Assembly: GCA_038245905.1 (NCBI GenBank)
Contig: JBBRRY010000007.1
Coordinates: 32,001 to 96,000 of the forward strand
Length of the DNA: 64,000 bases
Source of the DNA: Thermoanaerobaculia bacterium
Lineage (GTDB): Bacteria > Acidobacteriota > Thermoanaerobaculia > UBA5066
Direction: 5' to 3'
Shown piece by piece: positions 4,148-60,800 of this stretch. The translations under genes and the position numbers were made by a program. Below the pieces are notes generated by a model. The model saw only the letters and a list, made by a program, of their open reading frames with translations. It had not been told where the DNA came from and made no database searches. The first letter of the stretch is position 1, and each line of letters starts with the position of its first letter.

Positions 4148-4279
4148 AGAATATTTTGCTTCGGATTCGGATAGGGATTTCTTAGAGAGGGGAATTTGGA
4201 ATGCCCATTGAGAACAGCTCGAACGGCGGGGGAGCGGCGATCCCCCGTGCCCTCTTTCCCTTTCTAAGCAAAATATTCC
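4148..4279. repeat. Dispersed motif cluster 1 (convergent pair)
   Basis: + AGAATATTTTGCTTCGGA (4148-4165) and + GGGATTTCTTAGAGAGGGG (4174-4192). The - copy at 4258-4279 reads GGAATATTTTGCTTAGAAAGGG. Purine-rich left flank, pyrimidine-rich right flank. Confidence 0.75.
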
Positions 4280-6204
4280 TTTTCCTCTTCCTCTTCATTT
4301 CCCTGTCTCTGCGCGGGGCCGACGACGTCGTCCTCCCGAACGAGAACCTCGTCGCGGACGGACTGCCCGCGATCCCGAAGTCGCTTGCCGAGAGAGTCGC
4401 GGGCTACACCGATTCGCGTGGCGCGATGTTCGAAGCGTGGCACCCCGTGCGCCGCGAGATGCTCATCGGCACGCGTTTCTCGGACGTCGCCGAAGTCCAC
4501 CGCGTGAAGGTTCCGGGCGGGGCGCGCACGCAGCTGACGTTCTATCCCGAGCGCACGGGCGGGGCGCGGTTCCGGCCGAACACGGGCGACGGGTTCGTCT
4601 TCAACAAGGATGTCGGCGGCGGCGAGTGGTACCAGCTCTTCTGGCGAGACGAGAAGACCGGCAAGGTCACGATGTTCACGGACGGAAAGTCCCGGAACAC
4701 GGGCGGCGACTTCTCGCACTCCGGCAAGTGGCTCGCGTACCAGTCCACGAAGCGGAACGGGAAAGACAACGATATCTACGTCGTGGACCCCGCGGACGCG
4801 AGGACCGAGCGGAAGGTCCTCGAGGTCTCGGGCGGCGGATGGGGCGTCTCCGACTGGTCGCCCGACGACAAGATTCTCCTCGTTGGCGAATACCTCTCCG
4901 TGAACGAGAGCCGCTACTGGCTGGTCGACGCGGCGACGGGCGCGAAGAGCCTCGCGACGCCGGAATCGAAGGAGAAGGTCGCCTGGGGCCGCGCCCTCTT
5001 CGCGAAGGACGGGAAGTCGGTCTACGCGACGACGGACTCCGGAGCCGAGTTCCACCGTCTCGTCTCGCTCGACCTCGCGACGAAGAAGATGACCGTCCTG
5101 ACGCCGGGCGTCGAGTGGGACGTGTCCTCGCTGAGTCTGTCCGAGGACGGGACCCGGCTCGCCTACGTCGTCAACGAAGGCGGCGCCGAGACCCTGCACG
5201 TCCTCGACACGGCCACGAAGAAGGAGATCGCGCTCCCGAAGGTCCCGCTCGGGACCATCGGCGCCGTGCGCTTCCACGAGAACGGGAAGGACCTGGCGTA
5301 CACGTTGTCCTCGGCGCAGTCGACCTCGGACGTCTACTCGATCGACGTGACGGCCGGGCCTACCGGAAAGATCGAACGCTGGACGGAAAGCGAGCTGGGC
5401 GGTCTCGACCCCGCGGCGCTCTCCCAGCCCGAGAAGATCTCGTGGAAGAGCTTCGACAGCCGCCCGATCACCGGATTCCTCTATCGCCCGCCTGCGTCCT
5501 TCAACGGCCCGCGCCCGGTGATCATCAACATCCACGGCGGACCCGAGGCTCAGTACCAGCCTGGATTCATCGGCCGAAACAACTTCTACGTGAACGAGCT
5601 CGGCGTCGCGATGATCTTCCCGAACGTGCGCGGCTCGTCGGGCTTCGGCAAGACGTTCGTCGCCCTCGACAACGCCGAGAAGCGCGAGGATTCGGTGAAG
5701 GACATCGGCGCCCTCCTCGACTGGATCGTCGCCCAGCCTTCGCTCGACAAGAGCCGCGTCATGGTGACGGGCGGGTCTTACGGCGGGTACATGACGCTCG
5801 CGTCGATGACGAATTACAACGACCGCTTCCGCTGCGCCGTCGACGTCGTGGGGATCTCGAACTGGGTCACGTTCCTCGAGCACACCGAGTCCTACCGGCG
5901 CGACCTGCGCCGCGCGGAATACGGCGACGAGCGCGACCCGAAGATGCGCGAGATCCTGCTGAAGATCTCGCCGCTCACGAACGCCGGGAAGATCACGAAG
6001 CCCATGTTGATCGTCCAGGGCCGCAACGATCCGCGCGTGCCCTACACCGAGGCCGAGCAGATGGTTGCCGCCATCAAGAAAAACGGCGGGCCCGTCTGGT
6101 ACCTCCTCGCGAAGGACGAAGGCCACGGGTTCAGCAAGAAGAAGAACCAGGACTTCCAGTTTCTCGCGACGCTGAAGTTCGTCGAGGACAACTTGCTCAA
6201 GTAG
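4201..6204 (+). CDS. S9 family (prolyl oligopeptidase/acylaminoacyl peptidase) serine peptidase
   Basis: Beta-propeller repeats, IHGGPE, catalytic GGSYGG, QGRNDPRVP, DEGHGF. Exact start uncertain. Confidence 0.92.
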   Translation: MPIENSSNGGGAAIPRALFPFLSKIFLFLFLFISLSLRGADDVVLPNENLVADGLPAIPKSLAERVAGYTDSRGAMFEAWHPVRREMLIGTRFSDVAEVHRVKVPGGARTQLTFYPERTGGARFRPNTGDGFVFNKDVGGGEWYQLFWRDEKTGKVTMFTDGKSRNTGGDFSHSGKWLAYQSTKRNGKDNDIYVVDPADARTERKVLEVSGGGWGVSDWSPDDKILLVGEYLSVNESRYWLVDAATGAKSLATPESKEKVAWGRALFAKDGKSVYATTDSGAEFHRLVSLDLATKKMTVLTPGVEWDVSSLSLSEDGTRLAYVVNEGGAETLHVLDTATKKEIALPKVPLGTIGAVRFHENGKDLAYTLSSAQSTSDVYSIDVTAGPTGKIERWTESELGGLDPAALSQPEKISWKSFDSRPITGFLYRPPASFNGPRPVIINIHGGPEAQYQPGFIGRNNFYVNELGVAMIFPNVRGSSGFGKTFVALDNAEKREDSVKDIGALLDWIVAQPSLDKSRVMVTGGSYGGYMTLASMTNYNDRFRCAVDVVGISNWVTFLEHTESYRRDLRRAEYGDERDPKMREILLKISPLTNAGKITKPMLIVQGRNDPRVPYTEAEQMVAAIKKNGGPVWYLLAKDEGHGFSKKKNQDFQFLATLKFVEDNLLK

Positions 6205-6260
6205 AGGAGAGGATGTGTTCTTGGAGGGGAGGCACCCTTCCGGGAAACTCGAGACGCGAC

Positions 6261-10294: not shown

Positions 10295-12724
10295 GTGGAC
10301 ATTTCGAGCGCCCTTCGCGCCGCGCGAGACCGCGTGGCGCCCACCGTGAGCGCGATCCGGGACCGGCTCTTTCTCCTCGCGCGTGGGGGCTGGGACCGCA
10401 TGCGCCGTATCTCGCGCCCGCTGCTCTTCTTCGTCGCGGCGACCTCGGCGCTCTTGCTCGTCGCGTCGGTCGTCGTCGTCCTCTACTTTTCCCGCGTCGT
10501 CTCCCGCACGATGGACGGGAGGCGGTGGTCCCTTCCGACGCGCCTCTACTCCGACGTGTGGGCGGTGCGCGCCGGGGACACGCTCTCGGTGGACGACGTC
10601 GTGCGGCGCCTCGGGCGCCTCCGCTACGCCGAGGTCCCGAAGCCTCCGGTCGCCGCGGGGCAATACACGCTCCTGAAGGGGCGGATTCTCGTCAACCTGA
10701 ACGCGCGCGAGACCGCGTGGGGGCGGTCGCCCGGGGTCGCGGTCGAGATCGAGTTCTCGGGCCGCCGCGTCGCCGCGCTCAAGCGCGCCGACGATGGAAC
10801 GCCTTTGCCCTACGTCGTTTTCGAGCCGGAGCTCGTCGGGTCTGTCTACGACGAGAAGATGCAGGACCGCACGCTCGTCACGCTCGATCAGGTTGACCCC
10901 GTCGTGCTCGATGCGATCCTGACGACAGAGGACCGCGACTTCTTCACGCATGGCGGCATCTCGTTCCGCCGCCTCGTAGGAGCCGTCCTCCAGGGCGCGA
11001 CGCGCGGCTCCGCGGTCCGCGGAACGTCCACGCTCACCCAGCAGCTCGTGAAGAACATGTTCCTCACGCCGGAGCGGAAGTTGAAGCGCAAGGTCGTCGA
11101 GGCGCTGATGGCCGTGATCCTCGAGGCCAAGTACAGCAAGAAAGAGATCCTCGAGGCCTACCTGAACGAGATCTACCTCGGCCAGCGCGGCTCGATCTCC
11201 GTGACGGGCGTCGAGGAGGCCGCGCGGTTCTACTTCGGCAAGAGCGTTTCGAGGCTCGGCCTTCCGGAGGCCGCAATGCTTGCGGGTCTCATCTCGTCGC
11301 CCGGAAAGTACTCACCCTACCGAAATCCCGAGAACGCCCGGGTGCGGCGCGCCGTCGTCCTCAGGGGGATGCTGGAGCAAAAGAAGATCGACAAATCGGC
11401 ATACGAGGCGGCGCTCGCCGCTCCTCTCACGAAGTCGAAGGGGCCGCCGTCGGGCATCGTCGCGCCGCACTTCGTCGACTTCGTGCTCAATCAGGTGAAG
11501 GAGGCTCCCGGATTCGTGAAGGAGGACGGTCTCTCCGTGTACACGACGCTGGACCCCGACATGCAGCAGGCGGCGCAGGCGGCGGTCCTGAAGGGTCTCG
11601 AGGAGCTCGAGAAGCGCTTCAAAAGGCTGCGGCCACGGGGAGAGGAGGATGCGCTCCAGGCTGCGGTCATCGCGCTCGACCCGGCGACGGGATCGGTGCG
11701 CGCGCTCGTGGGCGGGCGCGACTATCAGGTCAGCCAGTTCAATCGCGTCGTGCAAGCCCGGCGCCAGCCCGGTTCGCTGTTCAAGCCGTTCGTGTACCTG
11801 ACGGCGTTCGGAAAGCGCGATCTCGCGAAACCCATCACCCCCGCGTCGATCTTCATCGACTCGCCGATCGCGCTCGTCTGGGGGAAGGGCGAGGACGAGA
11901 CGTGGTCTCCGAAGAACTACGACGGCGAGTTCCGCGGACCCATGACGGCGCGCCAGGCGCTCGAGCAGTCCATCAATATCCCGACGGTGCGTATCGCCGT
12001 CACCGAGACCAAGCCCGGGCGCACGCTGCTTCCGGACATCGTGGACACGGCGCGGCGCGCGGGCATCTCGTCTCCGCTCAGGCCCTATCCGTCGCTCGCG
12101 CTCGGTTCCTTCGAAACGAGCCCCATGGAGATCGCGGCGGCGTATTGCACGTTTGCGAACGGGGGGTTCCGCGTGCGCCCGAATGCGCTCCTCGGGATCG
12201 TGGGCGCTAATGCCCGGCGCATCGAGACGCAGAACGAGCCCGTTGTCCGGGGCGTCGACGCGGATGCGATCTCGATTCTCGATTCGGTCCTTCAGGGGGT
12301 CGTGGATCGCGGGACCGGCGGCTCGGCGCGCCGTCTCGGGGCGCAGGGCATCTTCGCGGGCAAGACCGGCACGACGAACGACGGACGTGACGCGTGGTTC
12401 GTCGGTTTCTCGCCGCGCCTTCTGGTCGCGGTCTGGGTCGGATTCGACGACAACCGCGGCCTGAACCTGTCCGGATCCTCGGCGGCGCTTCCGATCTTTG
12501 CTGATTTCGTGCGCCGCCTGCCGTCGCAGTATTTCGAGGTTCCGTTCCCCTCGACGCCGGGCGTCGTCACGGTGTCGATCGACCCGACGACCGGCCTGCT
12601 CGTGACCGAGGAGTGTCCGAAGTCGTTCGACGAAGTCTTTCTCGAGGGCACTCAGCCGACGGAGCGCTGCAATGCCCACGGCGGGGGAGCGCCCGGCCCC
12701 GGCGTCGCCACCGGAGCGCCGTGA
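10295..12724 (+). CDS. mrcB: Penicillin-binding protein 1B (UB2H + transglycosylase + transpeptidase)
   Basis: N-terminal TM, EDRDFFTHGG, STLTQQLVKN, RQPGSLFKP (SxxK), SIN, KTGTTND. Confidence 0.9.
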   Translation: MDISSALRAARDRVAPTVSAIRDRLFLLARGGWDRMRRISRPLLFFVAATSALLLVASVVVVLYFSRVVSRTMDGRRWSLPTRLYSDVWAVRAGDTLSVDDVVRRLGRLRYAEVPKPPVAAGQYTLLKGRILVNLNARETAWGRSPGVAVEIEFSGRRVAALKRADDGTPLPYVVFEPELVGSVYDEKMQDRTLVTLDQVDPVVLDAILTTEDRDFFTHGGISFRRLVGAVLQGATRGSAVRGTSTLTQQLVKNMFLTPERKLKRKVVEALMAVILEAKYSKKEILEAYLNEIYLGQRGSISVTGVEEAARFYFGKSVSRLGLPEAAMLAGLISSPGKYSPYRNPENARVRRAVVLRGMLEQKKIDKSAYEAALAAPLTKSKGPPSGIVAPHFVDFVLNQVKEAPGFVKEDGLSVYTTLDPDMQQAAQAAVLKGLEELEKRFKRLRPRGEEDALQAAVIALDPATGSVRALVGGRDYQVSQFNRVVQARRQPGSLFKPFVYLTAFGKRDLAKPITPASIFIDSPIALVWGKGEDETWSPKNYDGEFRGPMTARQALEQSINIPTVRIAVTETKPGRTLLPDIVDTARRAGISSPLRPYPSLALGSFETSPMEIAAAYCTFANGGFRVRPNALLGIVGANARRIETQNEPVVRGVDADAISILDSVLQGVVDRGTGGSARRLGAQGIFAGKTGTTNDGRDAWFVGFSPRLLVAVWVGFDDNRGLNLSGSSAALPIFADFVRRLPSQYFEVPFPSTPGVVTVSIDPTTGLLVTEECPKSFDEVFLEGTQPTERCNAHGGGAPGPGVATGAP

Positions 12725-13629
12725 AGCTCACGCTGCCCCCGATGGACCTCGGGCTCGTCGTCCGAAGCCACGGGTGGTACGACCTCGCCCCGTTCGAATG
12801 GGATGCGGAGAAGAAGACACTGAGAGTGATCTTCTTAGAAGGAGAAAGAGGTCGCCCCGTTCAGGTTGCGGTGCAGGAGCGCGCGAACGGGCTCGTCGCA
12901 ACGGCAACGGCGGCGGGCAAGCCCTCTTTGTCATTCAAAGAAAATCTCTCTTCGGACATTTTCCGTCGCGCCGTAGGCCGCGTTCTGGAGAGGGTCCTCG
13001 ATCTGAAAGCAAATCTTTCTTTCTTCCATTCGTCCTGCGCCGGCGATCCCCGCTTCGCGTGGATCGCCCGGCGCGGCGCGGGGCGCATCCTCCGCGCGCC
13101 GACGCTCTTCGAGGACGCGGTCAAGGTGCTCGCGACGACGAACTGCACATGGGGCTTGACGAGGCTCATGGTCCGGAACCTCGTCGAGCGCTTCGATCGG
13201 GGCGGGGCATTCCCGGACGCGACATTCGTCGCGGGACTTCCGGCGCGCGCGCTCGTCGGGGCCAAGTTCGGATACCGGGCGCCCTATCTCGCGGCTTTCG
13301 CCGGGCGCGTCGCGTCGGGGAAGCTGGACCTCGCGCGTTGGGAGGACGCCTCCCGCTCGAACGAAGACGTCGAAGGAGACATCCGCGCCGAAAAGGGCTT
13401 CGGTCCCTACGCGGCCGACACGCTAGGGCGGCTGCTCGGCCGGCATCGGAAGCTGGGGCTCGATTCGTGGTCCCGGAAGAAAGTCGCCTCCCTGAGGTTC
13501 CGCGGCCGCGCCGTGAAGGACGCGCGGGTGGAGCGCCTCTACGCGCCGTTCGGCCGGCACGCGGGGCTGGCGTTCTGGCTCGATGTGACCCGCGACTGGC
13601 ACGAGGGAAAGGAGAGCCTGTGGTCCTGA
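12721..13629 (+). CDS. HhH-type DNA glycosylase (AlkA/OGG1-like)
   Basis: SHGWYDLAPF, GAGRILRAPTLFEDAVKVLATTN, HhH-like KGFGPYAA. GTG 12721 overlaps the PBP stop. Confidence 0.75.
   Translation: MKLTLPPMDLGLVVRSHGWYDLAPFEWDAEKKTLRVIFLEGERGRPVQVAVQERANGLVATATAAGKPSLSFKENLSSDIFRRAVGRVLERVLDLKANLSFFHSSCAGDPRFAWIARRGAGRILRAPTLFEDAVKVLATTNCTWGLTRLMVRNLVERFDRGGAFPDATFVAGLPARALVGAKFGYRAPYLAAFAGRVASGKLDLARWEDASRSNEDVEGDIRAEKGFGPYAADTLGRLLGRHRKLGLDSWSRKKVASLRFRGRAVKDARVERLYAPFGRHAGLAFWLDVTRDWHEGKESLWS
12822..13020. repeat. Dispersed motif cluster 2 (convergent pair inside the glycosylase gene)
   Basis: + core TTCTTAGAA 12832-12840 followed by GGAGAAAGAGG. - core at 12934-12942 reads GAGAGATTTTCTTTGAATGACAAAGAGGG. 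Centres are 102 bp apart. A weaker - copy lies near 13003. Confidence 0.8.
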
Positions 13630-19280: not shown

Positions 19281-20122
19281 GGTCCCGCCTCCGCGGCGGA
19301 CACGCCATCCACGATCGCGTCGAGATTCGCCTTCATGTCCTTCTCGAAGCGCTCGGGCGTGTACGGCCCGCCGGCGATGTGGGTCAGCCTCCGGAGCCGG
19401 CACCCGGATTCCTTTTCGATCGTGTCGACGTACGAGCGTTCGAGCCCGAGCTCCGTGAAGAGAAGATTCACGCGGGCCGCCTTGATGCGCTCGATCGTGT
19501 CCGCGAGCTGCCGCGCGGACGGCTCGACGCCGTGACGCGCCTGCACGACCGCGTCGACGCGGAGTCCGAGCTCCGAGAAGAGGTACCCGTACCCGTCGTG
19601 AACGGTGGCGATGCGGACGCGCGAAAGGTCCTTACCCTCGAGGCGTCGGAGCGCGTCGGCGAGGAGACTGCGCAGCCGCTTCACGTAGGCACGCGCGTTG
19701 TCGGCGTAGAGATCCGCATGCACGGGGTCGAGGCGGCCCAGCTCTTTCGCGAGGCTCTGGATCTGCTGCGAGGCGGCGGTGATCGAGAGAAACGAGTGGC
19801 TGTTCGCCCCGCCCGATGCGCCCGGAAGCAGCGGGACGTTCTTGTTCGGGGTGAGGCGCGGGAGGCGTTCCCTGCCGGCCGCCTTGAGCATCGGCTCGAG
19901 AAACGTGTCGTGGCCGAGGCCGTTCTCGACGACGGCGTCGAGCGATTCGACCGTCGCGAGATCTTCCGGCCGCGGCTGAAAGGAGTGCGGATCGGCGCCC
20001 GGGGGCACGATCGGAATCGCGATGGCGGCGTTGCCGCCGACGTTCGAGACCCATGAATAATAGGGATGGAGTGTGACGCCGACGCGGAGGACTGCGGCGA
20101 GAAGGACCGGAAGGGCGCTCAC
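19277..20122 (-). CDS. Metal ABC substrate-binding protein (cluster A-I, FpvC-like)
   Basis: RVGVTLHPYYSWVSN, DPHSFQPRPED, NSHSFLSI, ATVHDGYGY, HGVEPS, LTHI. These match my recollection of P. aeruginosa FpvC. Confidence 0.88.
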   Translation of the reverse strand: MSALPVLLAAVLRVGVTLHPYYSWVSNVGGNAAIAIPIVPPGADPHSFQPRPEDLATVESLDAVVENGLGHDTFLEPMLKAAGRERLPRLTPNKNVPLLPGASGGANSHSFLSITAASQQIQSLAKELGRLDPVHADLYADNARAYVKRLRSLLADALRRLEGKDLSRVRIATVHDGYGYLFSELGLRVDAVVQARHGVEPSARQLADTIERIKAARVNLLFTELGLERSYVDTIEKESGCRLRRLTHIAGGPYTPERFEKDMKANLDAIVDGVSAAEAGP

Positions 20123-20670
20123 GGCCTGGGCCCCGTGTCGCCGTCGAGCGCGACGAGCTCGAACCAGCCCTCGCGCACGGGGTACGCGCCCGCGACGCTC
20201 GCGGTTCCACCCTTTCGGAACCAGACCTCCGCGCTCGCGCCCTTCTCGCGCTCCTTCACGCGGAGAAGAAACGCGGTCCTCCGTCCCGCCGGATCGACGC
20301 CCGCGTAGTCCGCGGCGGTTCCGTTCGCGGTGGCGGTCCAGACGAGTCCGCGCGCCGCCGCCGGCAGGAGGGCCGGCGCGAAGGGAGGGACCTCTTCGCC
20401 GGCCAGGGCCGGCACGTCCGGCCAGGCGCCGGTCCTCTTTCGCTGGGACATGACGGAATCGACCGCGACGAGGAGCGATTGATAGACGACCTGATCGCTC
20501 GCGGTCAGCACGAGAGGCGCTGCCCCCTGCGGGGCTCCGTCCGAGCCCGCGCGGGGCAGCGTCGCGACGCGCACGGCACCGAGAAGGAGTACGGCGGCGA
20601 TGGCGGCCCCGACGCCGAGGGCCTCTCTCGAGGCACTGGGCGGACGCACGCGGCGACCGGCGGATTTCAT
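20119..20670 (-). CDS. Membrane-anchored FpvK/DUF6162-like protein
   Basis: VRPPSASREAL + TM, LTASDQVVYQSL, WPDVPALAGEEVPPF, EVWF..GW. Lies directly before the FpvC-like SBP. Confidence 0.6.
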   Translation of the reverse strand: MKSAGRRVRPPSASREALGVGAAIAAVLLLGAVRVATLPRAGSDGAPQGAAPLVLTASDQVVYQSLLVAVDSVMSQRKRTGAWPDVPALAGEEVPPFAPALLPAAARGLVWTATANGTAADYAGVDPAGRRTAFLLRVKEREKGASAEVWFRKGGTASVAGAYPVREGWFELVALDGDTGPRP

Positions 20671-21302
20671 CAGCGCCCGAACCGGACGCGCAGAGCCGCG
20701 GTCGTGACTTCGGAGGGAGGCTCGGCGGGATCGGACGGATAGAACGTCAGCCGCTTCGTCCGGTCCGCCTCCGGCACGTCCGAAGAGAGGACCGAGGCGC
20801 CCTTCGTGGCCGCCGCGATGATCTCCTTCCAGCCAGCCCGGCCTTCGAAGTTCGTGTCGGAGAACGCAATCGTCACTTCGCCGGCCTTTGGGAGATCGGC
20901 CGCAAGCTCGATCGTGAGGCGGGCGGTGGGGAGATCCGCGACGCCCGGCGAGAATTCCAGCGAGCTCTTCACGACACGGAGCGGCACCCGCGTGCCGTCG
21001 ATCGCGAGGACGAGGCCGGGTGCAAAGAGGGCGGCGAACGCGTCCCGGAGTCTCGCGAGCGCGTCGCCCCGGGGCGCGCTTGTCAGTCCGGACTCCGAGA
21101 GCGCCTTCTGCGTCGGGATCTCGGCGAGGTCGATGACGTGCGTGACGTCGATTCCTCCGGTGCGCGGCGATAGCCGCGTCCATCGATTCACGGAAAAATT
21201 ACCCATGGGATGGGAGAAAGATTCCGCTGAAGAGAGGAGAAGAGAGAGAAAGAAGAGAGATTTTCTTAGAAGGGAGGAGGGGAGGGTTTCTCTCCTACTC
21301 AT
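20670..21302 (-). CDS. Periplasmic HPMGNF-domain protein (stand-alone N-terminal domain of NiCoT/RcnA-type fusions)
   Basis: Signal peptide then HPMGNFSVNR, DLAEIPT, FSDTNFEGRAGWKEI, LTFYPSD. No downstream TM domain. Confidence 0.6.
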   Translation of the reverse strand: MSRRETLPSSLLRKSLFFLSLLLSSAESFSHPMGNFSVNRWTRLSPRTGGIDVTHVIDLAEIPTQKALSESGLTSAPRGDALARLRDAFAALFAPGLVLAIDGTRVPLRVVKSSLEFSPGVADLPTARLTIELAADLPKAGEVTIAFSDTNFEGRAGWKEIIAAATKGASVLSSDVPEADRTKRLTFYPSDPAEPPSEVTTAALRVRFGR

Positions 21303-21320
21303 TCGCAGAACTCTTCATCT
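21212..21320. repeat. Dispersed motif cluster 3
   Basis: Long purine run, then + GAGAGATTTTCTTAGAAGGGAGG (core 21263-21271). A weaker - copy has core TTCGCAGAA at 21302-21310. Confidence 0.65.
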
Positions 21321-22515
21321 CCGTCAGCATGCGCTTTGCCTCATCCGCATGGAGGACGTGAAATCTGGGATCGATCTCCAGAGCTCGCTTCAGGTGCCGG
21401 GTGGCGGCCTGGCGATCGCCCGCGGCGCGGGCGATCGCTCCCGCGTGGAATTCGAAGAGAGGGTCGATCGTTCCCATCGCGAGCGCTTTCGCCATCGGCT
21501 CGGCGGCCTCTGTTGCTCTTCCCGCCGCGTAGAGGCTCCACGCGTAGGCGTCGTAACCGCCGACGTCCTTGCGGGTCTCGAGTTCCCGGGAGGTCATCTC
21601 GACGGCGCGTTTCGGGTCGCCGTTCTCGGCGAGACTTAGGGCGAGTAGGCGATGGACCCTTCTCTCGGGCTCGGGAAGAAGAGCTTCGAGCGTTTGGACG
21701 GTCGCCCGGGCGCGCGCCTCTCCGTCGCGGTCGCCCGTGGCCTTCCGGTAGTCGACGAGAGCCGAGGCGACGGAGAACTCCGGCACGAGCGCGAACGACT
21801 TCTCGGCGAGGCGCGTGGCAGGCTCCCAGAGGCCCTTGCGCGCCGCGATCTCCGCTGCCACGGCGAGTGCGGGAGCGTGATTCGGGACTCGGAGGAGGGC
21901 CTCGACGAGACGCCCCTCCGCTTCTTCGTAACGGTTCATCTTCAGGAGGATCCGGGCCGAGCGCGCGCGGCACCACGCATAGCCTTCGAGGTCGTCGGGG
22001 AGCGCCGCGCTCGCGGCGAAGTCCATCGCGGAGAGAGCGCCCGTCAGATCGCCGCCAACGTCCTTCGCGAGTGCGAGGCGGCTGTACGAGGCGGTCGAGC
22101 GGCTGGCGGCCGCGAACCGGTCGTAGGCTGCGAAGGCCTCGGGATAGCGCCCGACTTCGAGGAAGGCGTCGCCGAGGGCCCCATCCAGCTCCGCGTCGCC
22201 GGGACGTTCCACCTTCAGTGCGGCTGCCTCGCGTGCGAGTTCCTCGAAACGGTGGTGGGGGAGGAGAAGCCTCAGCCTGAACTTGCGAAGCGCGAAGTCC
22301 CCGGGCGAGGCGGTCAGCCCCCTGGTGACCGCGGATTCGGAGGCCGCGAGATCGGCAGGATCGAGCGTGCGGCGATAGTGCGCGTATCGCTCTTCGGCTG
22401 TCTTCAGGCACGGCTGCGACTCGGCGGCCGCGAGGAAGGAGAGGACGAAAGGAAGGGCGGCGGCCGCCACTCTCACTAGAGGAGAGAGCAGAGACCGCCG
22501 CCGCCGCGAATTCAC
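21295..22515 (-). CDS. Exported tetratricopeptide-repeat protein
   Basis: Signal peptide, helical repeats (LGDAFLEVGRYPEA, DAYAWSLYAAG, LKRALEIDPRF). Typical DUF4331 partner. Confidence 0.85.
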   Translation of the reverse strand: MNSRRRRSLLSPLVRVAAAALPFVLSFLAAAESQPCLKTAEERYAHYRRTLDPADLAASESAVTRGLTASPGDFALRKFRLRLLLPHHRFEELAREAAALKVERPGDAELDGALGDAFLEVGRYPEAFAAYDRFAAASRSTASYSRLALAKDVGGDLTGALSAMDFAASAALPDDLEGYAWCRARSARILLKMNRYEEAEGRLVEALLRVPNHAPALAVAAEIAARKGLWEPATRLAEKSFALVPEFSVASALVDYRKATGDRDGEARARATVQTLEALLPEPERRVHRLLALSLAENGDPKRAVEMTSRELETRKDVGGYDAYAWSLYAAGRATEAAEPMAKALAMGTIDPLFEFHAGAIARAAGDRQAATRHLKRALEIDPRFHVLHADEAKRMLTEMKSSANE

Positions 22516-28936: not shown

Positions 28937-29608
28937 GTGTCGCTCCCCGACGCGCCCGCGCTCGTGGCAGGCTTCCGCACCCTCTTCGGGGAAGACCCGC
29001 GCGCCGCGTTTCGCGACTGGGTCGTCCTGCAGGAGCACCTGCGGGACGCCGGCGGCGGGGAAGAGGACGCACGGAAAGCACGCGCGCTCGCGAATGATCT
29101 GCTCGAAATTCGAGGCGCACTGGCGTTTTCTTCGAAAGGGGAAGAGGCGACTTTCCTGCACAACGTCGCCGTCTTCTTCGGGTCGCGCGGCCCGGCGGAG
29201 AGCCTCCCTTTCTCTCTCTACCTATTTGAAGAATCTCTCGACGCCGGTTACGGAAGCGAAGACCCTGAGGCGATGGCGCGTCTTCAACACAACCGCGGCA
29301 ACGCGCTCCAGAACCTCGCGCGGTCGACCGGCGACCTGCTGGAGGCGCTCGGGTGCTACGAGCGCGCCCTCACGGTGCGCGACGACTCGCGCCGCATCGC
29401 CCGCGGCGTGACCTTGCATGCCCGGGGGTTGCTCTTCCGAAAACTGGCGGAGGCCGAGCCCGGGGTGAGACTCGAGCGCCTCGCAGCGGCCATTTCCTCC
29501 TTCGAAGAATCTCTCTCCCTTCGTTCCGATGAAAAGCTGGAACGCGGCATGGCCGAGACGGCTGCCGCTCTCGCCGAGGCGCGACAGGCGCTTTCTTCGG
29601 GCTGCTAG
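28937..29608 (+). CDS. TPR-like helical protein
   Basis: ARLQHNRGNALQNL, EALGCYERALTVR. GTG preceded by TACGAT at 6 nt. Confidence 0.7.
   Translation: MSLPDAPALVAGFRTLFGEDPRAAFRDWVVLQEHLRDAGGGEEDARKARALANDLLEIRGALAFSSKGEEATFLHNVAVFFGSRGPAESLPFSLYLFEESLDAGYGSEDPEAMARLQHNRGNALQNLARSTGDLLEALGCYERALTVRDDSRRIARGVTLHARGLLFRKLAEAEPGVRLERLAAAISSFEESLSLRSDEKLERGMAETAAALAEARQALSSGC
29124..29520. repeat. Dispersed motif cluster 4
   Basis: + GTTTTCTTCGAAAGGGGAAGAGG (core 29128-29136). - cores at 29225-29233 (97 bp away) and 29501-29509 (GAGAGATTCTTCGAAGGAGG). Confidence 0.75.
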
Positions 29609-39291: not shown

Positions 39292-39335
39292 GTGTGCACG
39301 CCCCTAGGAGCCCGGCTGGTCCCCCAGACGGACTC

Positions 39336-40244: not shown

Positions 40245-40317
40245 CGTCGGGAGGTTGAGATGCGGTGCGCACCTCGTCAAGCGGGAGGATGCATCAGCGT
40301 CCTGCTAGGCTCGGGGC

Positions 40318-41382
40318 ATGCGGGCACTCGTCTGCGACGGGCCGGGGCGGGTGGCCCTCCGTGAGGTCGCGACCCCGGAGCCGGGGCCGGGCGAGGTCCT
40401 CGTGCGCGTGGCCGTCGCGCTCACGTGCGCGACCGATTTCAAGATTCTGAAGCGGGGCCATCCGAAGATCCCGTTCCCTCTCACGCTCGGCCACGAGTTC
40501 GCGGGCCGGATCGAAAGAGCGGGCGCGGGGACGCCCTTCGACGTGGGGGATCGCGTGACGTCGGCGGTGTCGGGCCCGTGCGGAGACTGCGAGACCTGCC
40601 GTGCCGGCCGGCAGAACCTCTGCGCGTCGGCTTTCGACCAGCCGCTCTTCGGGGCCTTCGCGGACTTCATTCTCGTCCCGAAGCGCATCGTGAGGAACGG
40701 GCTGAGGCGGATTTCTGAAGGACTCTCAGACGAAGCGGCTGCCCTCCTCGATCCGCTGGCGAGTGTCGTGCACGCGATCGGCCGGGTGGAGAGGTCCATG
40801 GGCGGCGACGTTCTGATCGTTGGCACCGGCCCGATCGCGGCGATGCTGTTTTTTCTCTTGAGCGGGAAAAAGAAGGAGACGGAGAGGACGGGCGCGGAAC
40901 GCCGGATTGTCGTCGCGGGACGGCGGGAGGAGAGACTCGTTTTCTTTGAAAGGAACAGAGCGGAGATTGTGCGCATCGCCGACCCTTTGCGCGAGCCGGC
41001 CGCCGGAGCCTCCGGTCTCCTCTTCACCTTCAAAGAAAATCCCCGGTCTTTCTCTCTCGTCATCGACACGACCGGCGCTGCCGGCGTGATCGAAGCGCTG
41101 CCCGGACTCGCCGCGGACGGCGGGACAGTGCTCCTCTTCGCCGGGCTGCCCGCCGGGGCTCGTGTCTCCCTCGACGCGCACGCGATCCACTACCGCGAGG
41201 TGTCGATCGTCGGCTCGTTCCACTACACGCCGCAGGAAGTTGATGAAGCCCTCACGCTCCTTTCGAAGGGAGCGGTCCCGGCCTCGGAGGTCGTCTCAGC
41301 GGCTCGCCCTCTCGCCGACTGGCGGGTCGCGTTCGATCTCGTGAAGGGCGGCGCCACGATGAAGGTTGGTCTCGTCCCGTGA
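40318..41382 (+). CDS. Zn-dependent alcohol/polyol dehydrogenase
   Basis: CATD, GHEFAG, CGDCETC..C, GTGPIA. Atypical segment in the Rossmann region. Confidence 0.85.
   Translation: MRALVCDGPGRVALREVATPEPGPGEVLVRVAVALTCATDFKILKRGHPKIPFPLTLGHEFAGRIERAGAGTPFDVGDRVTSAVSGPCGDCETCRAGRQNLCASAFDQPLFGAFADFILVPKRIVRNGLRRISEGLSDEAAALLDPLASVVHAIGRVERSMGGDVLIVGTGPIAAMLFFLLSGKKKETERTGAERRIVVAGRREERLVFFERNRAEIVRIADPLREPAAGASGLLFTFKENPRSFSLVIDTTGAAGVIEALPGLAADGGTVLLFAGLPAGARVSLDAHAIHYREVSIVGSFHYTPQEVDEALTLLSKGAVPASEVVSAARPLADWRVAFDLVKGGATMKVGLVP
40928..41060. repeat. Dispersed motif cluster 5 (convergent pair inside the ADH gene)
   Basis: + core TTCTTTGAA 40942-40950 (GTTTTCTTTGAAAGGAACAGAG). - core at 41029-41037 reads AGACCGGGGATTTTCTTTGAAGGTGAAGAGG. 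Centres are 87 bp apart. Confidence 0.8.
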
Positions 41383-53508: not shown

Positions 53509-53583
53509 GCTCGTTCCACCGTTCGCGCGGGCGGATTGGCGTTTCCAGACGGTCGATTGGCGCGGAGTGGCCAGACTACGCCC

Positions 53584-53612
53584 TTGAACCGTTGGGAAAG
53601 CGCTCCTACATT
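53584..53612 (+). promoter_or_regulatory. Putative sigma-70 promoter
   Basis: TTGAAC-N17-TACATT upstream of the CARDB gene. Confidence 0.45.
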
Positions 53613-53670
53613 GGTCGCCATCGCGCCAGTCACCAATCAGAAACGTGAACGTCATCGAAAGGACGAACCA

Positions 53671-54630
53671 ATGCGCCACAGCCGCTTGTTCCTTGACGCC
53701 TTCCTCCTCGGGGCGCTCGCCGCGCCACTCGCCGCTCGGGCCCAGCTTCCCGACCTCGTCGTGACGTCGTTCACGGTCACGCCGAGGAGCGTCGCGCCCG
53801 GCGGATCCATCGAGATCGTCTCGGAGATCCGCAACGCCGGCACGGCGCCGGTGCCCGCCCGCGGACCGGCGGCGGCCTCGACGGCCGTCGAGATCCGCCT
53901 CATGAGGGCCGAGACCGACGCCGGCGGCGACCTTCTTGGCGGCTGGGGACCGATTCGCGCCATTCCGGTCGGGGTGAGCGAGCGGTACACGAACCACGGG
54001 ACCATCCCCGCGGGGAAGGCGCCCGGACACTACTTCGCCTGCGCGACCGTCGACGCCGGGCACATCGTTCCCGAGAGCAACGAGTCGAACAACCGCGTCT
54101 GCCTGCCGTTGACGGTGACGGGCGGCGGCCCCGTCCCGGCGATCCCGGGCGGGGATGCCGGTACCATCAGACCCGCCGGGCCCTCGGTCGTCCCGGCCGG
54201 TACGGTCCGCCTCCCGGACCTCGTCGTCACCGGTGTCTCGGTCGGTGCGGTCAGCGGCCTCAGCCGTGCCGCGCAGGTCACGGTGAGAAACATCGGCGCG
54301 GCTCCCGCCACGAACTTCCGTATGGACGCGTACCAGCTCCAGCCGAAGCGCTGGCAGCTCCTCTTCACGGTATGCGCGCAGACGACTCGCGGTGGCTCGG
54401 CGTCGTGCGGAGCCGTCTGGGAGACGGGGAGCCTCGCAGCCGGCGCGACCCGTACGTACCCGGGATGGGTGACGTTCCCGTTGGATCACAAACCCGGGAC
54501 CACCGAGAAGGTGGAGTTCATGGCGGACGGCTGCTTCCCGGCGCTCGAGCCGGCGCTCCCCGCCGCGTGCCGCGTCGCCGAATCGAACGAGGCGAACAAC
54601 ACAGCGGGCGCGGCCATGGGCGTGCCCTGA
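53671..54630 (+). CDS. Secreted protein with two CARDB domains
   Basis: Signal peptide, two LPDLVVT...V.ESNE.NN repeats joined by a Pro/Gly linker. Confidence 0.85.
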   Translation: MRHSRLFLDAFLLGALAAPLAARAQLPDLVVTSFTVTPRSVAPGGSIEIVSEIRNAGTAPVPARGPAAASTAVEIRLMRAETDAGGDLLGGWGPIRAIPVGVSERYTNHGTIPAGKAPGHYFACATVDAGHIVPESNESNNRVCLPLTVTGGGPVPAIPGGDAGTIRPAGPSVVPAGTVRLPDLVVTGVSVGAVSGLSRAAQVTVRNIGAAPATNFRMDAYQLQPKRWQLLFTVCAQTTRGGSASCGAVWETGSLAAGATRTYPGWVTFPLDHKPGTTEKVEFMADGCFPALEPALPAACRVAESNEANNTAGAAMGVP

Positions 54631-54650: not shown

Positions 54651-55330
54651 AGACCGGGGGATTTCTTAGAAGGTAATTGGGCGGGTGCCCGCGGTCGTCA
54701 GTCGCGGTAGCGCTTGGCCAGCTGGTCCGGCGCCTCGCCCCTCTTGACCCTTCTCAGAATCTCCCAGTTCTTCAGAACAGTTTTCATGACGCCCCTTTCG
54801 AGGTAGCGCCGCGGCGAGGTCTCGACCGGGAGGGGAAGGAGCGCGATGCGCCCTTCGGCGCGGAGTCGCCGCGCAAGGTCCCAGTCCTCGAGAAGCGGCC
54901 ACGGGCGGTGGCCGCCGAGGCACTCGTAGACGTCGCGCCGAACGAAAGGGGCCTGGTCGCCATAGGGCATGCGCGTGAACCGGTTGCGGAGGTTCGCCCA
55001 GCCCGCGACCCACGACATCCGCCAGCCCCCGCCGGAGAAACCGAGCCGGAATGCGCCGCCGGCGGCGCCGGCGGCAATCGCCGTGCGAACCGCCGAGTCC
55101 CAGCCAGGCGGGAGGACCGTGTCCGAATGCAGGAAAAGAAGAACGGAAGATTCTTCGAAGGGTAAGAGGGCGGCCGCCTCGCCGAGGCGCTGGCCGCGCG
55201 TTACCGGTGACAGGTGAAGACGAGCGCCTGCCTGCACGAAGGCCTCTTTCACATTCGAAGAAATCCCCAAATCCCCTGCCACGACCAGCGAAACGGGTGA
55301 CTCGGCGCCCGTGACCCTTTCGAAGAAGAT
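54651..55330. repeat. Dispersed motif cluster 6 (two convergent pairs)
   Basis: + core 54663-54671 (AGACCGGGGGATTTCTTAGAAGGT) with - core 54751-54759 (88 bp). + core 55151-55159 (GAAGATTCTTCGAAGGGTAAGAGG) with - core 55254-55262 (103 bp). An extra - core lies at 55319-55327. Confidence 0.8.
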
Positions 55331-55393
55331 CTTCGACGGGGCGGCTTCGGCGACCCCTACAGGCACGATGACGCCGATCGAGAGGGAGCCCAA
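54698..55393 (-). CDS. GT2 glycosyltransferase, TIGR04283-like
   Basis: LLFLHSDTVLP, GAFRLGF, MPYGDQAPFVRR, PLLEDWDL, TSPRRY. Confidence 0.85.
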   Translation of the reverse strand: MGSLSIGVIVPVGVAEAAPSKIFFERVTGAESPVSLVVAGDLGISSNVKEAFVQAGARLHLSPVTRGQRLGEAAALLPFEESSVLLFLHSDTVLPPGWDSAVRTAIAAGAAGGAFRLGFSGGGWRMSWVAGWANLRNRFTRMPYGDQAPFVRRDVYECLGGHRPWPLLEDWDLARRLRAEGRIALLPLPVETSPRRYLERGVMKTVLKNWEILRRVKRGEAPDQLAKRYRD

Positions 55394-58078: not shown

Positions 58079-58972
58079 GTGAACCGGCGGCTCTTTCTCG
58101 CTGTTCTTGTCGGGCTCTCCGCGCCGTTTCGGGCAGCGGCAGCGGCACGCACGCGCCGGATCCTGCGGCTGAAGAACGGCACGGTCGAAGAGGTTCCGCT
58201 CGAGGACTACGTGGCGGCCGTCCTGCCGCCGGAGATCGGCCGGGCGCCCGCGGCGGCGCTCGAGGCGCAGGCGGTCGCGGCGCGCTCGTACGCGCTCGCG
58301 CGCGCCGAGCGCCATCTGGAGGACGGAGCGGACTTGTGCGACGGGACCCATTGCCAGGTCTTTCGCGGACTCGCCGCGGCCACTCAGGATTCGCGGCGCG
58401 CGGCGGCCGCCACCAAAGGCCTCGTTCTCACGCAGAATGGCAGGGTCATCGCGGCCCCGTTCCATGCGGTCTGCGGCGGACGAACGACACGTCCCCGCGA
58501 CGTCTGGGACGACGAGGAGATTCCCGAGCTCGCCTCGGTCGAGGACGACGCGTGTCTCGGGGTGCCTGGCTCCACCTGGTCTTTCACGATTCCTCGAGCC
58601 GCTCTCCCGTCGCTTACGAGCTCGCTCGGTTTCCCGGAGGCACGCCTTCTGGAAGTGTACGGTCACGACGCGAGCGGGCGCGTGTCGATGGTGCGCTTCG
58701 TGGCGCCCGGCGGCCAATCGCACGTGGCGCGCGGCTTCGAATTTCGCAAGGCCGCCTCGGAGATCTGGGGATGGGCCTCGGTGCGCTCGACGGATTTCAC
58801 GGTCGAGGAAACGAGGCCCGCCTACGTGCTGTCCGGACGAGGTACGGGGCACGGCGCCGGGATGTGCCAGGCCGGGGCGATCGTACGGGCGAGAAGGGGT
58901 GAGAGCCGGGACGCGATACTCGGCCTTTACTATCGAGGCGCTGTCGTGACCCTCGTCGGCCCCCGTGAGTAG
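58079..58972 (+). CDS. SpoIID/LytB domain protein (lytic transglycosylase-like)
   Basis: PLEDYVAAV, ALEAQAVAARSY, CDGTHCQVF, GTGHGAGMCQ. Confidence 0.88.
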   Translation: MNRRLFLAVLVGLSAPFRAAAAARTRRILRLKNGTVEEVPLEDYVAAVLPPEIGRAPAAALEAQAVAARSYALARAERHLEDGADLCDGTHCQVFRGLAAATQDSRRAAAATKGLVLTQNGRVIAAPFHAVCGGRTTRPRDVWDDEEIPELASVEDDACLGVPGSTWSFTIPRAALPSLTSSLGFPEARLLEVYGHDASGRVSMVRFVAPGGQSHVARGFEFRKAASEIWGWASVRSTDFTVEETRPAYVLSGRGTGHGAGMCQAGAIVRARRGESRDAILGLYYRGAVVTLVGPRE

Positions 58973-59015
58973 AGGTTCCACCCCTGCAGCGGTGGCTGCC
59001 GCTAGACTCCGGCGG

Positions 59016-60800
59016 GTGAGCGTTTCCCCTACGGCCGCCGGCCTCGACGTGCTTCTGTCGGAGGGCGGGAGGACGGCAGAGGTTCTTCGCGGGAAGAAGC
59101 TCGGCCTCCTCGCGAATGCGGCCTCGGCGACCGCCGGCTTTGATTCCGCCGCCCGCGCGCTTCTCTGCGCGGGATACGACGTGCGCGTTCTCTTCGGCCC
59201 CGAGCACGGGTTCTGGGGGGCGGCCCAGGACATGGAGGCCGTCGCGTCCGGAGAGCCTTCGCGCATTCCGGTCGTGTCTCTCTACGGCTCCACGCTCGAG
59301 GATCTCTCCCCGAGGCCCGAGCACCTCGCCGGTCTCGAAGCCGTCGTCTCGGACCTGCCCGACGTCGGCAGCCGCTATTACACCTTCGTCTGGACGACGG
59401 CGTTGATGATGAAGGCCTGTGCGGCGCGCGGAATCCCCGTCTTCGTCCTCGACCGGCCGAACCCGCTCGGCGGGGAGATCGTCGAGGGGAACCTGCCCGA
59501 GGAAGAGCTCCTTTCCTTCGTCGGCCTCTACCCGGTGCCGGCTCGCCATGGGATGACACCGGGGGAGGTCGCGTGGTTCGTGAATGCCGAGTACGGGCTG
59601 GGTTGCGACCTCACGGTCGTGCCGATGAAACGCGACGGGCGGGCCGCGTCGCGGACGGAGCTCGCGGACACGGGTGCCTGGGTGCTGCCCTCCCCGAACA
59701 TGCCGACGCCGGAAACCGCGGCGGTCTATCCCGGAGGCTGCCTCGTCGAGGGGACGAATCTCTCCGAAGGCCGGGGCACGACGCGGCCCTTCGAACTCCT
59801 CGGCGCGCCATGGCTCGACGCCGACGAGGCGGCCGACGCCGGGAACGGCCTCAGCTTGCCCGGCGTCAACTTTCGCCCTCACGTTTTCAGGCCCACGTTT
59901 CAGAAGCACGCGGGGAAAACCTGCGGCGGCGTGCAGGTACACGTAACGGAGAGAGCGACGTTCCGTCCGTACGAGACGTATCTCCGGCTCCTGAAGGCGC
60001 TCCGCGACCTGGACCCGGAACGCTTCCGCTGGCGGACGGAGAAATACGAGTACCGCGACGACGTTCCGGCGATCGACCTCCTTGCGGGCACGGCGACGTA
60101 CCGCAAGCTCGTGGACGAGGGCGCGAGTCTGGACTCCTGGATCGCGTCGTTCCGCGAAGACCAGAAGCACTTCGAAGCGCGACGCGGCCCTCACCTGCTC
60201 TATCCCACTCGAAGAAATTCTCCTTCGGTTCTTCTCGTCACGGGTGCGCACGAGTCGGGCAAGACGACGGTCGCGGTGCAGCTCATCGAGGCGCTCGCGA
60301 AGGAAGGCCTGAGAGTCGGATCGCTCAAGCACACGGACCACGAATACGAGACGGACATGGAGGGCAAGGACTCGCAGCGCCACAAGGCGGCGGGCGCGGA
60401 GCCGTCGGTGCTGGTGGCGGGACGGCGCAGTGCGGTGCACAGAGGACCGCGAGAGATTCTTGCTTCGGACCCGATCGCGGGCGCGGCCGGAGCAAACGCC
60501 CGGCCTGCTCTATCCGTTTTCTTAGAAGGGGAATATGGCCTTGGAGAGTGCGACGTCGTCCTGGTCGAAGGGTTCCGGAGCGAGCCATATCCGAAGATCG
60601 AGGTGTGCCGCGCGGCCACGGGCCGCGCGCCTCTCTGCGAAAACGACCCGAACGTCCTCGCCGTCGTCACGGACCGGTCCACGCAGCACGCCTCATCCGT
60701 TCCCCGATTCACCTTCAAAGAAATCCCTTCCCTCGTTCTCTTTCTAAAGAAGTCCCCCGTCTTCTCTTCTCTCTTTTCTTCTCTCTTCGGAGCACCATGA
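59016..60800 (+). CDS. Fusion of NamZ/DUF1343 exo-beta-N-acetylmuramidase and MobB
   Basis: LFGPEHG, DVGSRYYTF, LDRPNPLGG, RHGMTPGE, PSPNMP, SEGRGTTRPFE, ..LLY. The frame continues into GAHESGKTT, LKHTDH, GKDSQRH..AGA, VLVEGF. Confidence 0.88.
   Translation: MSVSPTAAGLDVLLSEGGRTAEVLRGKKLGLLANAASATAGFDSAARALLCAGYDVRVLFGPEHGFWGAAQDMEAVASGEPSRIPVVSLYGSTLEDLSPRPEHLAGLEAVVSDLPDVGSRYYTFVWTTALMMKACAARGIPVFVLDRPNPLGGEIVEGNLPEEELLSFVGLYPVPARHGMTPGEVAWFVNAEYGLGCDLTVVPMKRDGRAASRTELADTGAWVLPSPNMPTPETAAVYPGGCLVEGTNLSEGRGTTRPFELLGAPWLDADEAADAGNGLSLPGVNFRPHVFRPTFQKHAGKTCGGVQVHVTERATFRPYETYLRLLKALRDLDPERFRWRTEKYEYRDDVPAIDLLAGTATYRKLVDEGASLDSWIASFREDQKHFEARRGPHLLYPTRRNSPSVLLVTGAHESGKTTVAVQLIEALAKEGLRVGSLKHTDHEYETDMEGKDSQRHKAAGAEPSVLVAGRRSAVHRGPREILASDPIAGAAGANARPALSVFLEGEYGLGECDVVLVEGFRSEPYPKIEVCRAATGRAPLCENDPNVLAVVTDRSTQHASSVPRFTFKEIPSLVLFLKKSPVFSSLFSSLFGAP
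60198..60790. repeat. Dispersed motif cluster 7 (inside namZ-mobB)
   Basis: - core 60208-60216. + cores 60461-60469 (TGCTTCGGA variant as at 4157) and 60519-60527 (GTTTTCTTAGAAGGGGAA). - cores 60714-60722 and 60742-60750. Pyrimidine run to 60788. Confidence 0.78.

Follow-up and report, generated by a model that had tools for sequence, protein, structure and literature searches.

Signals iterated across the genomes of a clade, such as uptake sequences, HIP1, repetitive extragenic palindromes (REP), and Chi, are few. Each has revealed something of genome biology, and some still lack an explanation decades on. Chi, the FtsK-orienting polar sequences (KOPS), and Ter are asymmetric, over-represented motifs within genes, and their orientation is read by a tracking enzyme. 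They are single sites of 5 to 23 bp that are polarized with replication. Miniature inverted-repeat transposable elements (MITEs), including the in-frame Rickettsia palindromic elements (RPE), are insertions of a conserved whole element. Uptake sequences are described as occurring within genes and as intergenic inverted repeats (PMC2346458). HIP1 (GCGATCGC) of cyanobacteria is described as hyper-abundant in and between genes, conserved, and thought to be selected, with proposed roles in nucleoid structure or gene transfer (PMC5861425, PMC4390886, PMC13756078, bioRxiv 10.1101/2024.09.10.611283). REPINs are described as two inverted short repeats with a spacer of tens of bases, present at hundreds per genome and vertically inherited (PMC3337134, PMC3116915, bioRxiv 10.1101/2022.05.22.493013). 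Here we describe an oriented DNA motif from a 64-kb stretch of a Thermoanaerobaculia (Acidobacteriota) genome (C7:32001-96000, referred to as the window). It appears closest to this small set of clade-wide signals.

The assembly contains 3.8 Mb in 113 contigs and is 96% complete. It is fragmented and lacks 16S rRNA. The G+C content of the window is 61 to 71%, which is the background for the AT-rich core of the motif. Each copy of the motif, or arm, is asymmetric and 25 to 45 bases long. From 5' to 3', it reads from a purine-rich flank through GATTTTCTTNGAA to GG(T/G)GAAGAGG(GG). Forty arms were aligned, 15 from the window and 25 from other contigs. Their consensus is a purine-rich flank followed by G(A)GATTTTCTTNGAAGG(T/G)GAAGAGG. 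Columns T.CT..GA are invariant, and those conserved at 90% or more spell TTCTT.GAA.G. The near-invariant positions form a TTC-N3-GAA dyad inside each arm.

The motif is far more frequent in the window than in shuffled sequence. The core TTCTTNGAA had 13 matches; 100 dinucleotide shuffles gave 1.21 ± 1.16, with a maximum of 5. When up to 3 mismatches were allowed, the 16-mer TTTCTTNGAAGGNNAA had 23 matches, compared with 6.18 ± 2.46 in the shuffles, and a loose paired pattern had 4, compared with 0.08. A 45-nt sequence-only model placed 18 arms with E ≤ 0.011, and a further marginal one with E 0.7, at eight loci. Fifteen of the 18 were training sequences and match by construction; plain pattern searches support those 15 independently. 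The matches outside the training set were 29483-29521(-), 60189-60226(-), 60725-60763(-), and the marginal 21287-21317(-). Seven loci have at least two arms that reach E ≤ 0.011, and at each of them plus-strand arms lie to the left of minus-strand arms. The eighth locus, at 21251(+), has only the marginal partner. The locus at 60.2 to 60.8 kb has an extra minus-strand arm (60189) upstream of its plus-strand arm, 1.3 kb from any weak plus-strand match. With degenerate partners counted, convergent groups take in at least 16 of the 18 arms, the exceptions being 60189(-) and 21251(+). The observation of an oriented motif is confirmed. A generic inverted-repeat finder returned only GC-rich chance pairs among the 25 longest.

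The motif is abundant across the genome. At up to 1 mismatch, TTTCTTNGAAGGNNAA occurred 201 times (104 and 97 by strand), compared with 6 times (4 and 2) for a reversed control, which is the same pattern read backwards. The exact 9-mer core occurred 448 times, compared with 76 for the control, giving a density of about 1 per 8.5 kb. Exact cores lying within 10 to 300 bp of each other formed 90 convergent pairs (control, 0), 3 divergent pairs (control, 2), and 24 tandem pairs. The 180 arm positions in convergent pairs, a few of them shared between pairs, correspond to about 40% of the 448 exact cores.

The same signal was found in all 29 genomes of the genus, at 111 to 451 copies per genome, which is an approximately fourfold spread among congeners. 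Summed by hand, these genomes hold 3,191 convergent and 180 divergent pairs. All 8 genomes of the sister genus contain it, with 8 to 73 copies and 1 to 38 convergent pairs per genome. In the family's eight other genera (26 genomes), each genome contains 0 to 2 copies and no convergent pairs. Two other families of the order contain 0 to 6 copies (12 genomes, including the unpublished G019 and G024). The motif is a clade-specific signal family of one Thermoanaerobaculia genus, and it is weaker in the sister genus. The original prediction had named a frequency no higher than in synonymous-codon-shuffled sequence and a lack of orientation bias as grounds for giving it up. The reversed-pattern controls and the same-family outgroup genomes were at background, and the orientation bias is extreme.

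The prediction had also found no known motif to match, and the database results agree with this. Among the papers listed by full-text literature searches, none described the TTCTTAGAA core or such a repeat in Thermoanaerobaculia. At the gathering score, Rfam (15) matched only a selenocysteine tRNA (tRNA-Sec) in the window. At E ≤ 5, the eight element loci gave one chance-level miRNA match (E 0.68). A plasmid collection returned two 24-nt chance matches and nothing related. Among viral contigs, one AT-rich contig contained a single exact 19-mer and no further convincing arm.

Pair lengths were worked out by hand arithmetic for 50 of the 90 pairs of this genome. They ranged from 43 to 314 bp, and most were 76 to 156 bp long. 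Seventeen of the 50 were 83 to 104 bp, and 39 were 156 bp or shorter. The shortest pairs (43 and 46 bp) are abutting arms with zero spacer. Fifteen lengths were divisible by three, and no 10.5-bp helical phase was present. The working unit is two facing arms, with the AT-rich cores outside and the purine-rich ends inside; arbitrary host DNA, 0 to about 250 bp long, separates them. The loop-anchoring or DNA-wrapping role proposed in the original prediction finds no support in these lengths, which are continuous from 43 bp and show no such phase (50 of the 90 pairs). Nor is it supported by the core positions, which are patchy along a 347-kb contig, with gaps of up to 49 kb. Arm pairs of 102 bp recur in Ser/Thr protein-kinase paralogues, at about kinase residues 115 to 148 (L061:601-702, which is G000:C11:59932-60033, and many sister-genus loci). 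In the sister genus, a large part of all pairs are of this kinase type.

The arms are written over ordinary genes. The interiors of the eight window elements are unrelated, as had been predicted, and only the arms align (mean column identity, 35%). Many interiors are conserved protein segments, including parts of an alcohol dehydrogenase (ADH), a TIGR04283 glycosyltransferase, MobB, and a protein kinase. The ADH arms and interior (locus D) align to PDB 4ej6 with a 6-residue extra, FTFKEN, as the only addition. The glycosyltransferase matches TIGR04283 with residues 7 to 229 on profile positions 2 to 221 of 221 (223 residues, 220 positions). On other contigs, arms also lie inside HemD, HemC, a ketoacyl synthase, a protein kinase, and an unannotated open reading frame (ORF) of 649 residues whose repeats read as FG-GAP/VCBS-like. 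They are present in spacers as well as in genes. The encoded peptides include FLEGE and FFERN; elsewhere GISSNVKEA, ILRRVKRGE, and FSSKGEE; and on the opposite strand FKEN, FEES, and PFEESS. The motif is not a peptide motif, since the same DNA is read in different frames and on different strands across genes.

Comparison with outgroups indicates how the arms were made. Glycosyltransferase orthologues from three outgroups (the sister genus plus two more genera) can be aligned across the region, where they have ordinary G+C-rich codons. At one site, the outgroup has ..TGGAGGATCCTGTGGCGGTTCCGGAAGGGG.. and the genus has ..TGGGAGATTCTGAGAAGGGTCAAGAGGGGC.. Two of the arms at this locus are accompanied by insertions, of 9 nt and about 35 nt, relative to the outgroups. 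The GC-rich outgroup codons and the short insertions show that the arms arose in place, by substitutions and short indels, and not as the ends of an inserted repeat. The outgroup orthologues do not show the gain of a whole unit; they align through the element, and short indels occur at single arms. No direct repeat that would mark a target-site duplication was evident by eye at the outer ends of the 40 aligned arms. The multi-arm clusters inspected contained no transposase and consisted of ordinary genes (ketoacyl synthase, HemB/C/D, and the 649-residue ORF). Contigs of four DNA runs contained no inversion or excision joint between arms.

Orthologous sites are conserved but turn over. The left ADH arm is kept in 5 of 5 orthologues and the right arm in 4 of 5. 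In two orthologues the motif has moved by one codon (FFLERG instead of FFERNR), so the DNA is kept while the peptide changes. This shift and the differing frames across genes bear out the prediction of a signal at the nucleic-acid level. One ADH orthologue from a related metagenome-assembled genome (L003:1550-1920) has an 84-nt in-frame tandem duplication that doubles the reverse arm (..PFTFEEN.. twice). Across 14 species, one glycosyltransferase arm has an invariant core (14/14), and 13 species use GAA there instead of GAG. Ten species have a second arm, and the remaining 4 bear an arm in the opposite orientation about 50 nt beyond that site. At locus E, one arm is present in 12 of the 14 species and the other in 10, and one species lacks both.

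In the DNA glycosylase gene, the left arm is present in 15 of 15 species. On the right side, a reverse arm is present in 8 species; another 5 show a forward-type arm without an intact reverse arm, and 2 have neither. One of the 8 (G046) carries a forward-type arm too. The interior differs in length by up to about 150 nt among species. On this evidence, the signal is old and maintained at the DNA level, and it is also dynamic and linked to indels. The stretch between the glycosylase arms (12860-12915; L043, L053-L055) is hypervariable, with 0 to about 50 residues added among homologues. Several species have a CGCGCC-TTCG-GCGCG stem-loop there, with a forward-type arm after it.

The motif can be set against each of the known systems. 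Like Chi, KOPS, and Ter, it is asymmetric, over-represented, and embedded in genes; unlike them, it has both orientations coupled locally, head to head. Like MITEs and RPE, it has terminal inverted repeats about 100 bp apart, some of them in frame in permissive protein regions. Unlike those elements, it shares only the arms between copies, and the enclosed sequence is mostly the ancestral gene. It resembles the uptake signal sequences (USS) of Pasteurellaceae and the DNA uptake sequences (DUS) of Neisseriaceae as described in PMC2346458, with hundreds of copies in one clade, equal numbers on both strands, formation in genes through substitutions, and retention at orthologous sites. It differs from USS and DUS in forming a convergent pair around arbitrary DNA, even in genes. 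It is also longer (25 to 45 bp) and sparser, and it is not known to have an uptake bias or a receptor. It shares abundance, clade restriction, and in-gene evolution with HIP1 as described in PMC5861425. HIP1 is a single perfect 8-bp palindrome that is far denser and is tied to orphan methyltransferases, whereas the present motif is long, asymmetric, and paired, and only its TTC-N3-GAA is dyadic. Like the REPINs of the REP-associated tyrosine transposase (RAYT) system, it consists of two inverted short repeats with a short spacer (90 convergent pairs in this genome). Unlike it, REPINs are extragenic, replicate whole with a conserved spacer, and need RAYT, a Y1 transposase. The arms described here lie in the genes for ADH, glycosyltransferase, MobB, kinase, HemD/HemC, and ketoacyl synthase, and their interiors are unrelated host sequence.

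We tentatively suggest that the arms are paired sites on duplex DNA, separately recognized by a putative clade-specific factor; this is plausible, though we hold it with somewhat less than even confidence. Each arm would be recognized by itself by one sequence-specific factor. The factor may bind as a dimer on the TTC-N3-GAA dyad core and be oriented by the inner purine tract, and two inward-facing bound arms may then act together. Candidate downstream roles are a chromosomal or topological mark, a recombination-related site, and a self-tag for DNA uptake. The partners of a pair behave as independent draws. Both partners have the same base after the core in 11 of 28 pairs (the first 28 of the 50 pairs; hand count), compared with about 38% expected. 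Partner T-run lengths are uncorrelated in 14 pairs by eye, and central mismatches at locus E are uncompensated across 10 species. Hand counts gave no compensatory change between partner arms in the 28 pairs or in the 10 species at locus E. This independence, together with the dyad within each arm, points to a trans-acting reader of each single arm, most simply a protein on duplex DNA. Several results weigh against such a reader. No candidate reader protein was found. Interiors of 0 to 60 bp are poor for protein-mediated looping of duplex DNA and are tolerated by hairpins, and the short interiors and the lack of helical phase argue against a rigid protein bridge. In all 7 elements folded as RNA, the minimum-free-energy structure pairs the two arms with each other (z, -0.05 to -5.65). 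The approximately fourfold spread in copy number and the patchy positions are more in keeping with a drive or mobile process than with a fixed structural set. Several arms also lie in indel-prone stretches, such as the glycosylase locus, where orientation differs among species.

These points lead to the competing explanations. The arms may instead pair in a single strand, either in mRNA or in single-stranded DNA during replication or transfer, with a factor or nuclease reading the purine:pyrimidine stem. The open end of the hairpin would be AU-rich, and the loop would lie at the GAGG end. The element is symmetric, so the same structure would form in any transcript. The inverted layout, a loop-like length distribution that starts at zero, and the pairing of arms in all seven folds (four with z ≤ -2.7) are consistent with this. 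The convergent-only rule would set which end of the stem bears the loop, and the purine-rich and pyrimidine-rich outer flanks would extend the stem. The hand counts, however, gave neither compensatory changes nor partner-specific similarity, although a stem whose sequence is itself read would likewise lack covariation. Central positions mismatch freely, and the unequal T-runs of partners would give bulges. The near-invariant dyad within each arm suits duplex recognition, the Rfam results given above yield no family for the elements, and no Y1/HUH transposase was found in this genome. We consider a hairpin signal rather unlikely on this balance. Slightly less probable is an uptake-sequence-like drive, in which the motif would be a preferred substrate for uptake or recombination and would have spread by biased transmission, as proposed for USS/DUS, without a benefit at each site. 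Clade specificity with lower counts in the sister genus, near-equal strands (104 and 97), and the fourfold variation among congeners would all be expected of it. So would the making of arms in coding sequence from proto-sites by substitution, and orthologous conservation with turnover. ComEC (PF03772) and DprA (PF02481) scored above the cut-off in this genome; both are near-universal and were found in 10 of 14 control genomes, and they count for little. A bias acting on single sites does not predict pairing, yet about 40% of exact cores are in convergent pairs, 30 times as many as in divergent pairs, even inside genes. The density of one exact core per 8.5 kb is also below that of uptake sequences in Haemophilus and Neisseria, which is roughly one per kb.

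An origin by mobility or recombination is improbable. Under this explanation, very short modules, either REP-like singlets or ends on which a domesticated transposase or recombinase acts, would insert, invert, or convert near arms and be tolerated in permissive loops. The architecture is like that described for REPINs, which have two inverted REPs and a spacer (PMC3337134, PMC3116915). Arms coincide with short insertions in the glycosyltransferase (9 nt and about 35 nt), ADH (18 nt), and glycosylase (0 to about 150 nt) genes. Arm orientation differs between species at the glycosylase site, and the 84-nt duplication in one ADH orthologue includes an arm. The interiors are nevertheless native, conserved protein segments that are unrelated between copies, and many arms match outgroup codons base for base. 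Y1_Tnp (PF01797) had no match in this genome, which is 96% complete and was the only genome of the genus searched; the control was positive in 6 of 14 known genomes. Cas12f1-like_TNB (PF07282) had no match in the 29 genus and 8 sister-genus genomes (control positive in 8 of 14). The inspected clusters without a transposase, the plasmid and viral collections without a related element, and the lack, by eye, of an evident target-site duplication in the 40 arms point the same way. It is hardly credible that the motif is a by-product of protein motifs (F-[FL]-E, F-x-E-E), codon usage, or chance. Some cores do coincide with conserved peptides, as in the kinase sequence ..FLEGEE..RF.REA..LNHP..IY.FEE.., which holds the 102-bp pairs of many paralogues. 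Against this, outgroup genera of similar genome type (26 genomes) have 0 pairs and 0 to 2 copies, arms occur in spacers too and are read in different frames, and shuffles and reversed controls are at background.

Other candidates were considered and rejected. A TnpB/Cas12f-type RNA-guided binder with a T-rich adjacent motif was dropped on the same PF07282 result (0/29 in the genus and 0/8 in the sister genus). The forward arm (AGAAGGTGA) resembles a Shine-Dalgarno sequence, judged by what we take to be the 16S rRNA tail. A general role in translation initiation was dropped because only one of the eight window loci is at a start codon. Integron attC sites have their core sites in the opposite order and come in arrays. 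The CodY box and the Hin hix half-site have a superficial likeness. Intrinsic terminators have their U-rich run after the stem, and here it comes before. For Chi, local pairing is not expected.

Returning to paired sites read by a clade-specific factor, a broader claim is possible, although we regard it as doubtful. The motif may be a new genome-wide signal, in which a long asymmetric motif is written in head-to-head pairs over the organism's own genes, at the expense of codon choice and even of the protein sequence. Its reader would be a putative clade-specific machine, perhaps a two-site uptake or self-recognition system or a paired-site chromosome-handling protein, and would lack a counterpart among USS/DUS, HIP1, REP/REPIN, Chi, and KOPS. 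A role in uptake or self-recognition would make it the first signal of that kind in Acidobacteriota, and the first anywhere with an obligatory dyad architecture. An architectural role would give a sequence handle on nucleoid organization in an uncultured lineage. The strong orientation rule, the sharp boundary within the family (graded in the sister genus), and the reshaping of coding sequence should bring the responsible factor within reach of phyletic profiling and DNA affinity methods. In metagenomes, the arms are a marker of the genus, and they can mislead gene callers and repeat finders.

The window arms are described below by locus, and all were training sequences of the model unless stated. 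The list of copies in the original prediction was essentially right, but it overlooked 55303-55335(-), 60189-60226(-), and 60725-60763(-). Its pair distances of 102, 87, 88, 103, and 195 bp were correct. It had counted seven clusters, most of them with plus copies on the left and minus copies on the right; the orientation holds at all seven multi-arm loci, and the number of loci is eight.

Locus A is at the start of an S9 prolyl-oligopeptidase gene (4201-6204; Pfam Peptidase_S9). The left arm (4172..4202, +) overlaps the ribosome-binding region and the ATG at 4201, and it scored 12.8 bits (E 0.0068). The right arm (4243..4281, -; 20.1 bits) is in the N-terminal hydrophobic coding part of the gene, the signal-peptide region. 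A pair had been predicted here at 105 bp. The pair exists, but its distance is 83 bp, with the plus-strand core at 4179-4187 (center 4183). The predicted center at 4161 is a weaker half-copy that the model did not list.

Locus B is in a DNA glycosylase-like gene (12613-13629 frame). The called protein has 302 aa, and JGI names its homologues 3-methyladenine/8-oxoguanine DNA glycosylase. The left arm (12823..12856, +; 21.9 bits) encodes ..RVIFLEGERG.., and the right arm (12914..12953, -; 24.1 bits) encodes ..PSLSFKENL.. The right arm lies in a stretch that varies from 0 to about 50 residues among homologues.

Locus H contains one arm (21251..21286, +; 23.9 bits). It is in the spacer between two minus-strand genes, which encode a TPR protein (21295-22515) and a DUF6162 protein (20119-21183). 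The marginal degenerate partner (21287..21317, -) overlaps the stop of the TPR gene. It was not in the training set and is weak (6.6 bits, E 0.7).

Locus C is in a long putative ORF (27368-29608) with no family match. The left arm (29119..29150, +) scored 20.7 bits. The right arm (29483..29521, -) is 373 bp from it, scored 19.7 bits (E 3.7e-5), and was not in the training set. The original prediction had paired copies at 29132 and 29229. The plus-strand arm, at 29128(+), is real, but the minus-strand copy at 29229 is very weak (3.1 bits, E 9.7), and the model instead gives 29483-29521(-) (center 29505) as the partner. There is no arm between 29.5 and 40.9 kb (29522-40929), and the G+C content dips to 0.61 to 0.64 at 36 to 40 kb (36001-40000). 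The 29.5- to 40.9-kb stretch, with its low-G+C part, may be a more recently acquired segment.

Locus D is in the zinc alcohol dehydrogenase gene (40318-41382). The left arm (40930..40965, +; 17.5 bits) encodes ..LVFFERNRAE.. in the Rossmann domain and is the one kept in all five orthologues. The right arm (41010..41048, -; 24.1 bits), kept in four, encodes ..LLFTFKENPRS.., which includes the FTFKEN extra relative to PDB 4ej6.

Locus E is at the 3' end of the TIGR04283-family glycosyltransferase gene (54698-55393, minus strand). The left arm (54651..54691, +; 23.4 bits) is in the spacer between convergent genes, where the CARDB-domain gene ends at 54630 and the glycosyltransferase gene ends at 54698. 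It is present in 10 of 14 species and absent from the three outgroup orthologues. The right arm (54731..54771, -; 18.5 bits) encodes ..ILRRVKRGE.. and is present in 12 of 14 species; the outgroups have GC-rich codons there. A related strain (X2/X3 contigs) lacks the CARDB-domain gene (53536-54630), and its position 53509 is joined to 54664. Twenty-two other purine-rich letters lie between the joined ends, and the next arm comes directly after the stop of the upstream gene. One junction of this loss falls at the core of the left arm of locus E, and the other has no arm. Loss of the gene by arm-to-arm recombination was rejected on the lack of an arm at that other junction.

Locus F is in the same glycosyltransferase gene and contains three arms. 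The first (55139..55178, +; 20.4 bits) encodes ..AALLPFEESS.. on the minus strand. The second (55239..55272, -; 23.1 bits) encodes ..GISSNVKEA.. and is the arm present in 10 of 14 species, with the opposite-oriented arm about 50 nt downstream in the other 4. The third (55303..55335, -; 16 bits) encodes ..KIFFERV.., and its core columns are invariant in all 14 species.

Locus G is in the MobB part of an ORF at 58965-60800 (+). The left arm (60516..60544, +; 18.8 bits) encodes ..FLEGEYG.., and the right arm (60698..60724, -; 16.2 bits) encodes ..RFTFKEIP.. near the MobB C-terminus. A second, weaker right-hand arm (60725..60763, -) is in the pyrimidine-rich tail before the next gene (ATG at 60797). 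It scored 12.1 bits (E 0.011) and was not in the training set. The arm with no convergent partner within 1.3 kb (60189..60226, -; 17.2 bits, E 2.5e-4), also outside the training set, is near the NamZ/MobB junction. The ORF encodes NamZ_N/NamZ_C at residues 47 to 413 and MobB at residues 422 to about 596 in one frame. It is either an unusual fusion or two genes without a stop between them. In the related strain (X2/X3), 15 other letters replace 60 nt at 60440-60501, near this junction (MobB from about 60228).

The window contains other features of interest. A 696-residue ORF at 2044-4134 (+) has GreA/GreB domains only at residues 550 to 686. It has either a long N-terminal extension or a mis-set start. 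A selenocysteine tRNA gene with the anticodon TCA is present at 24362-24460 (+). It scored 62 bits against Rfam tRNA-Sec, and ARAGORN agrees.

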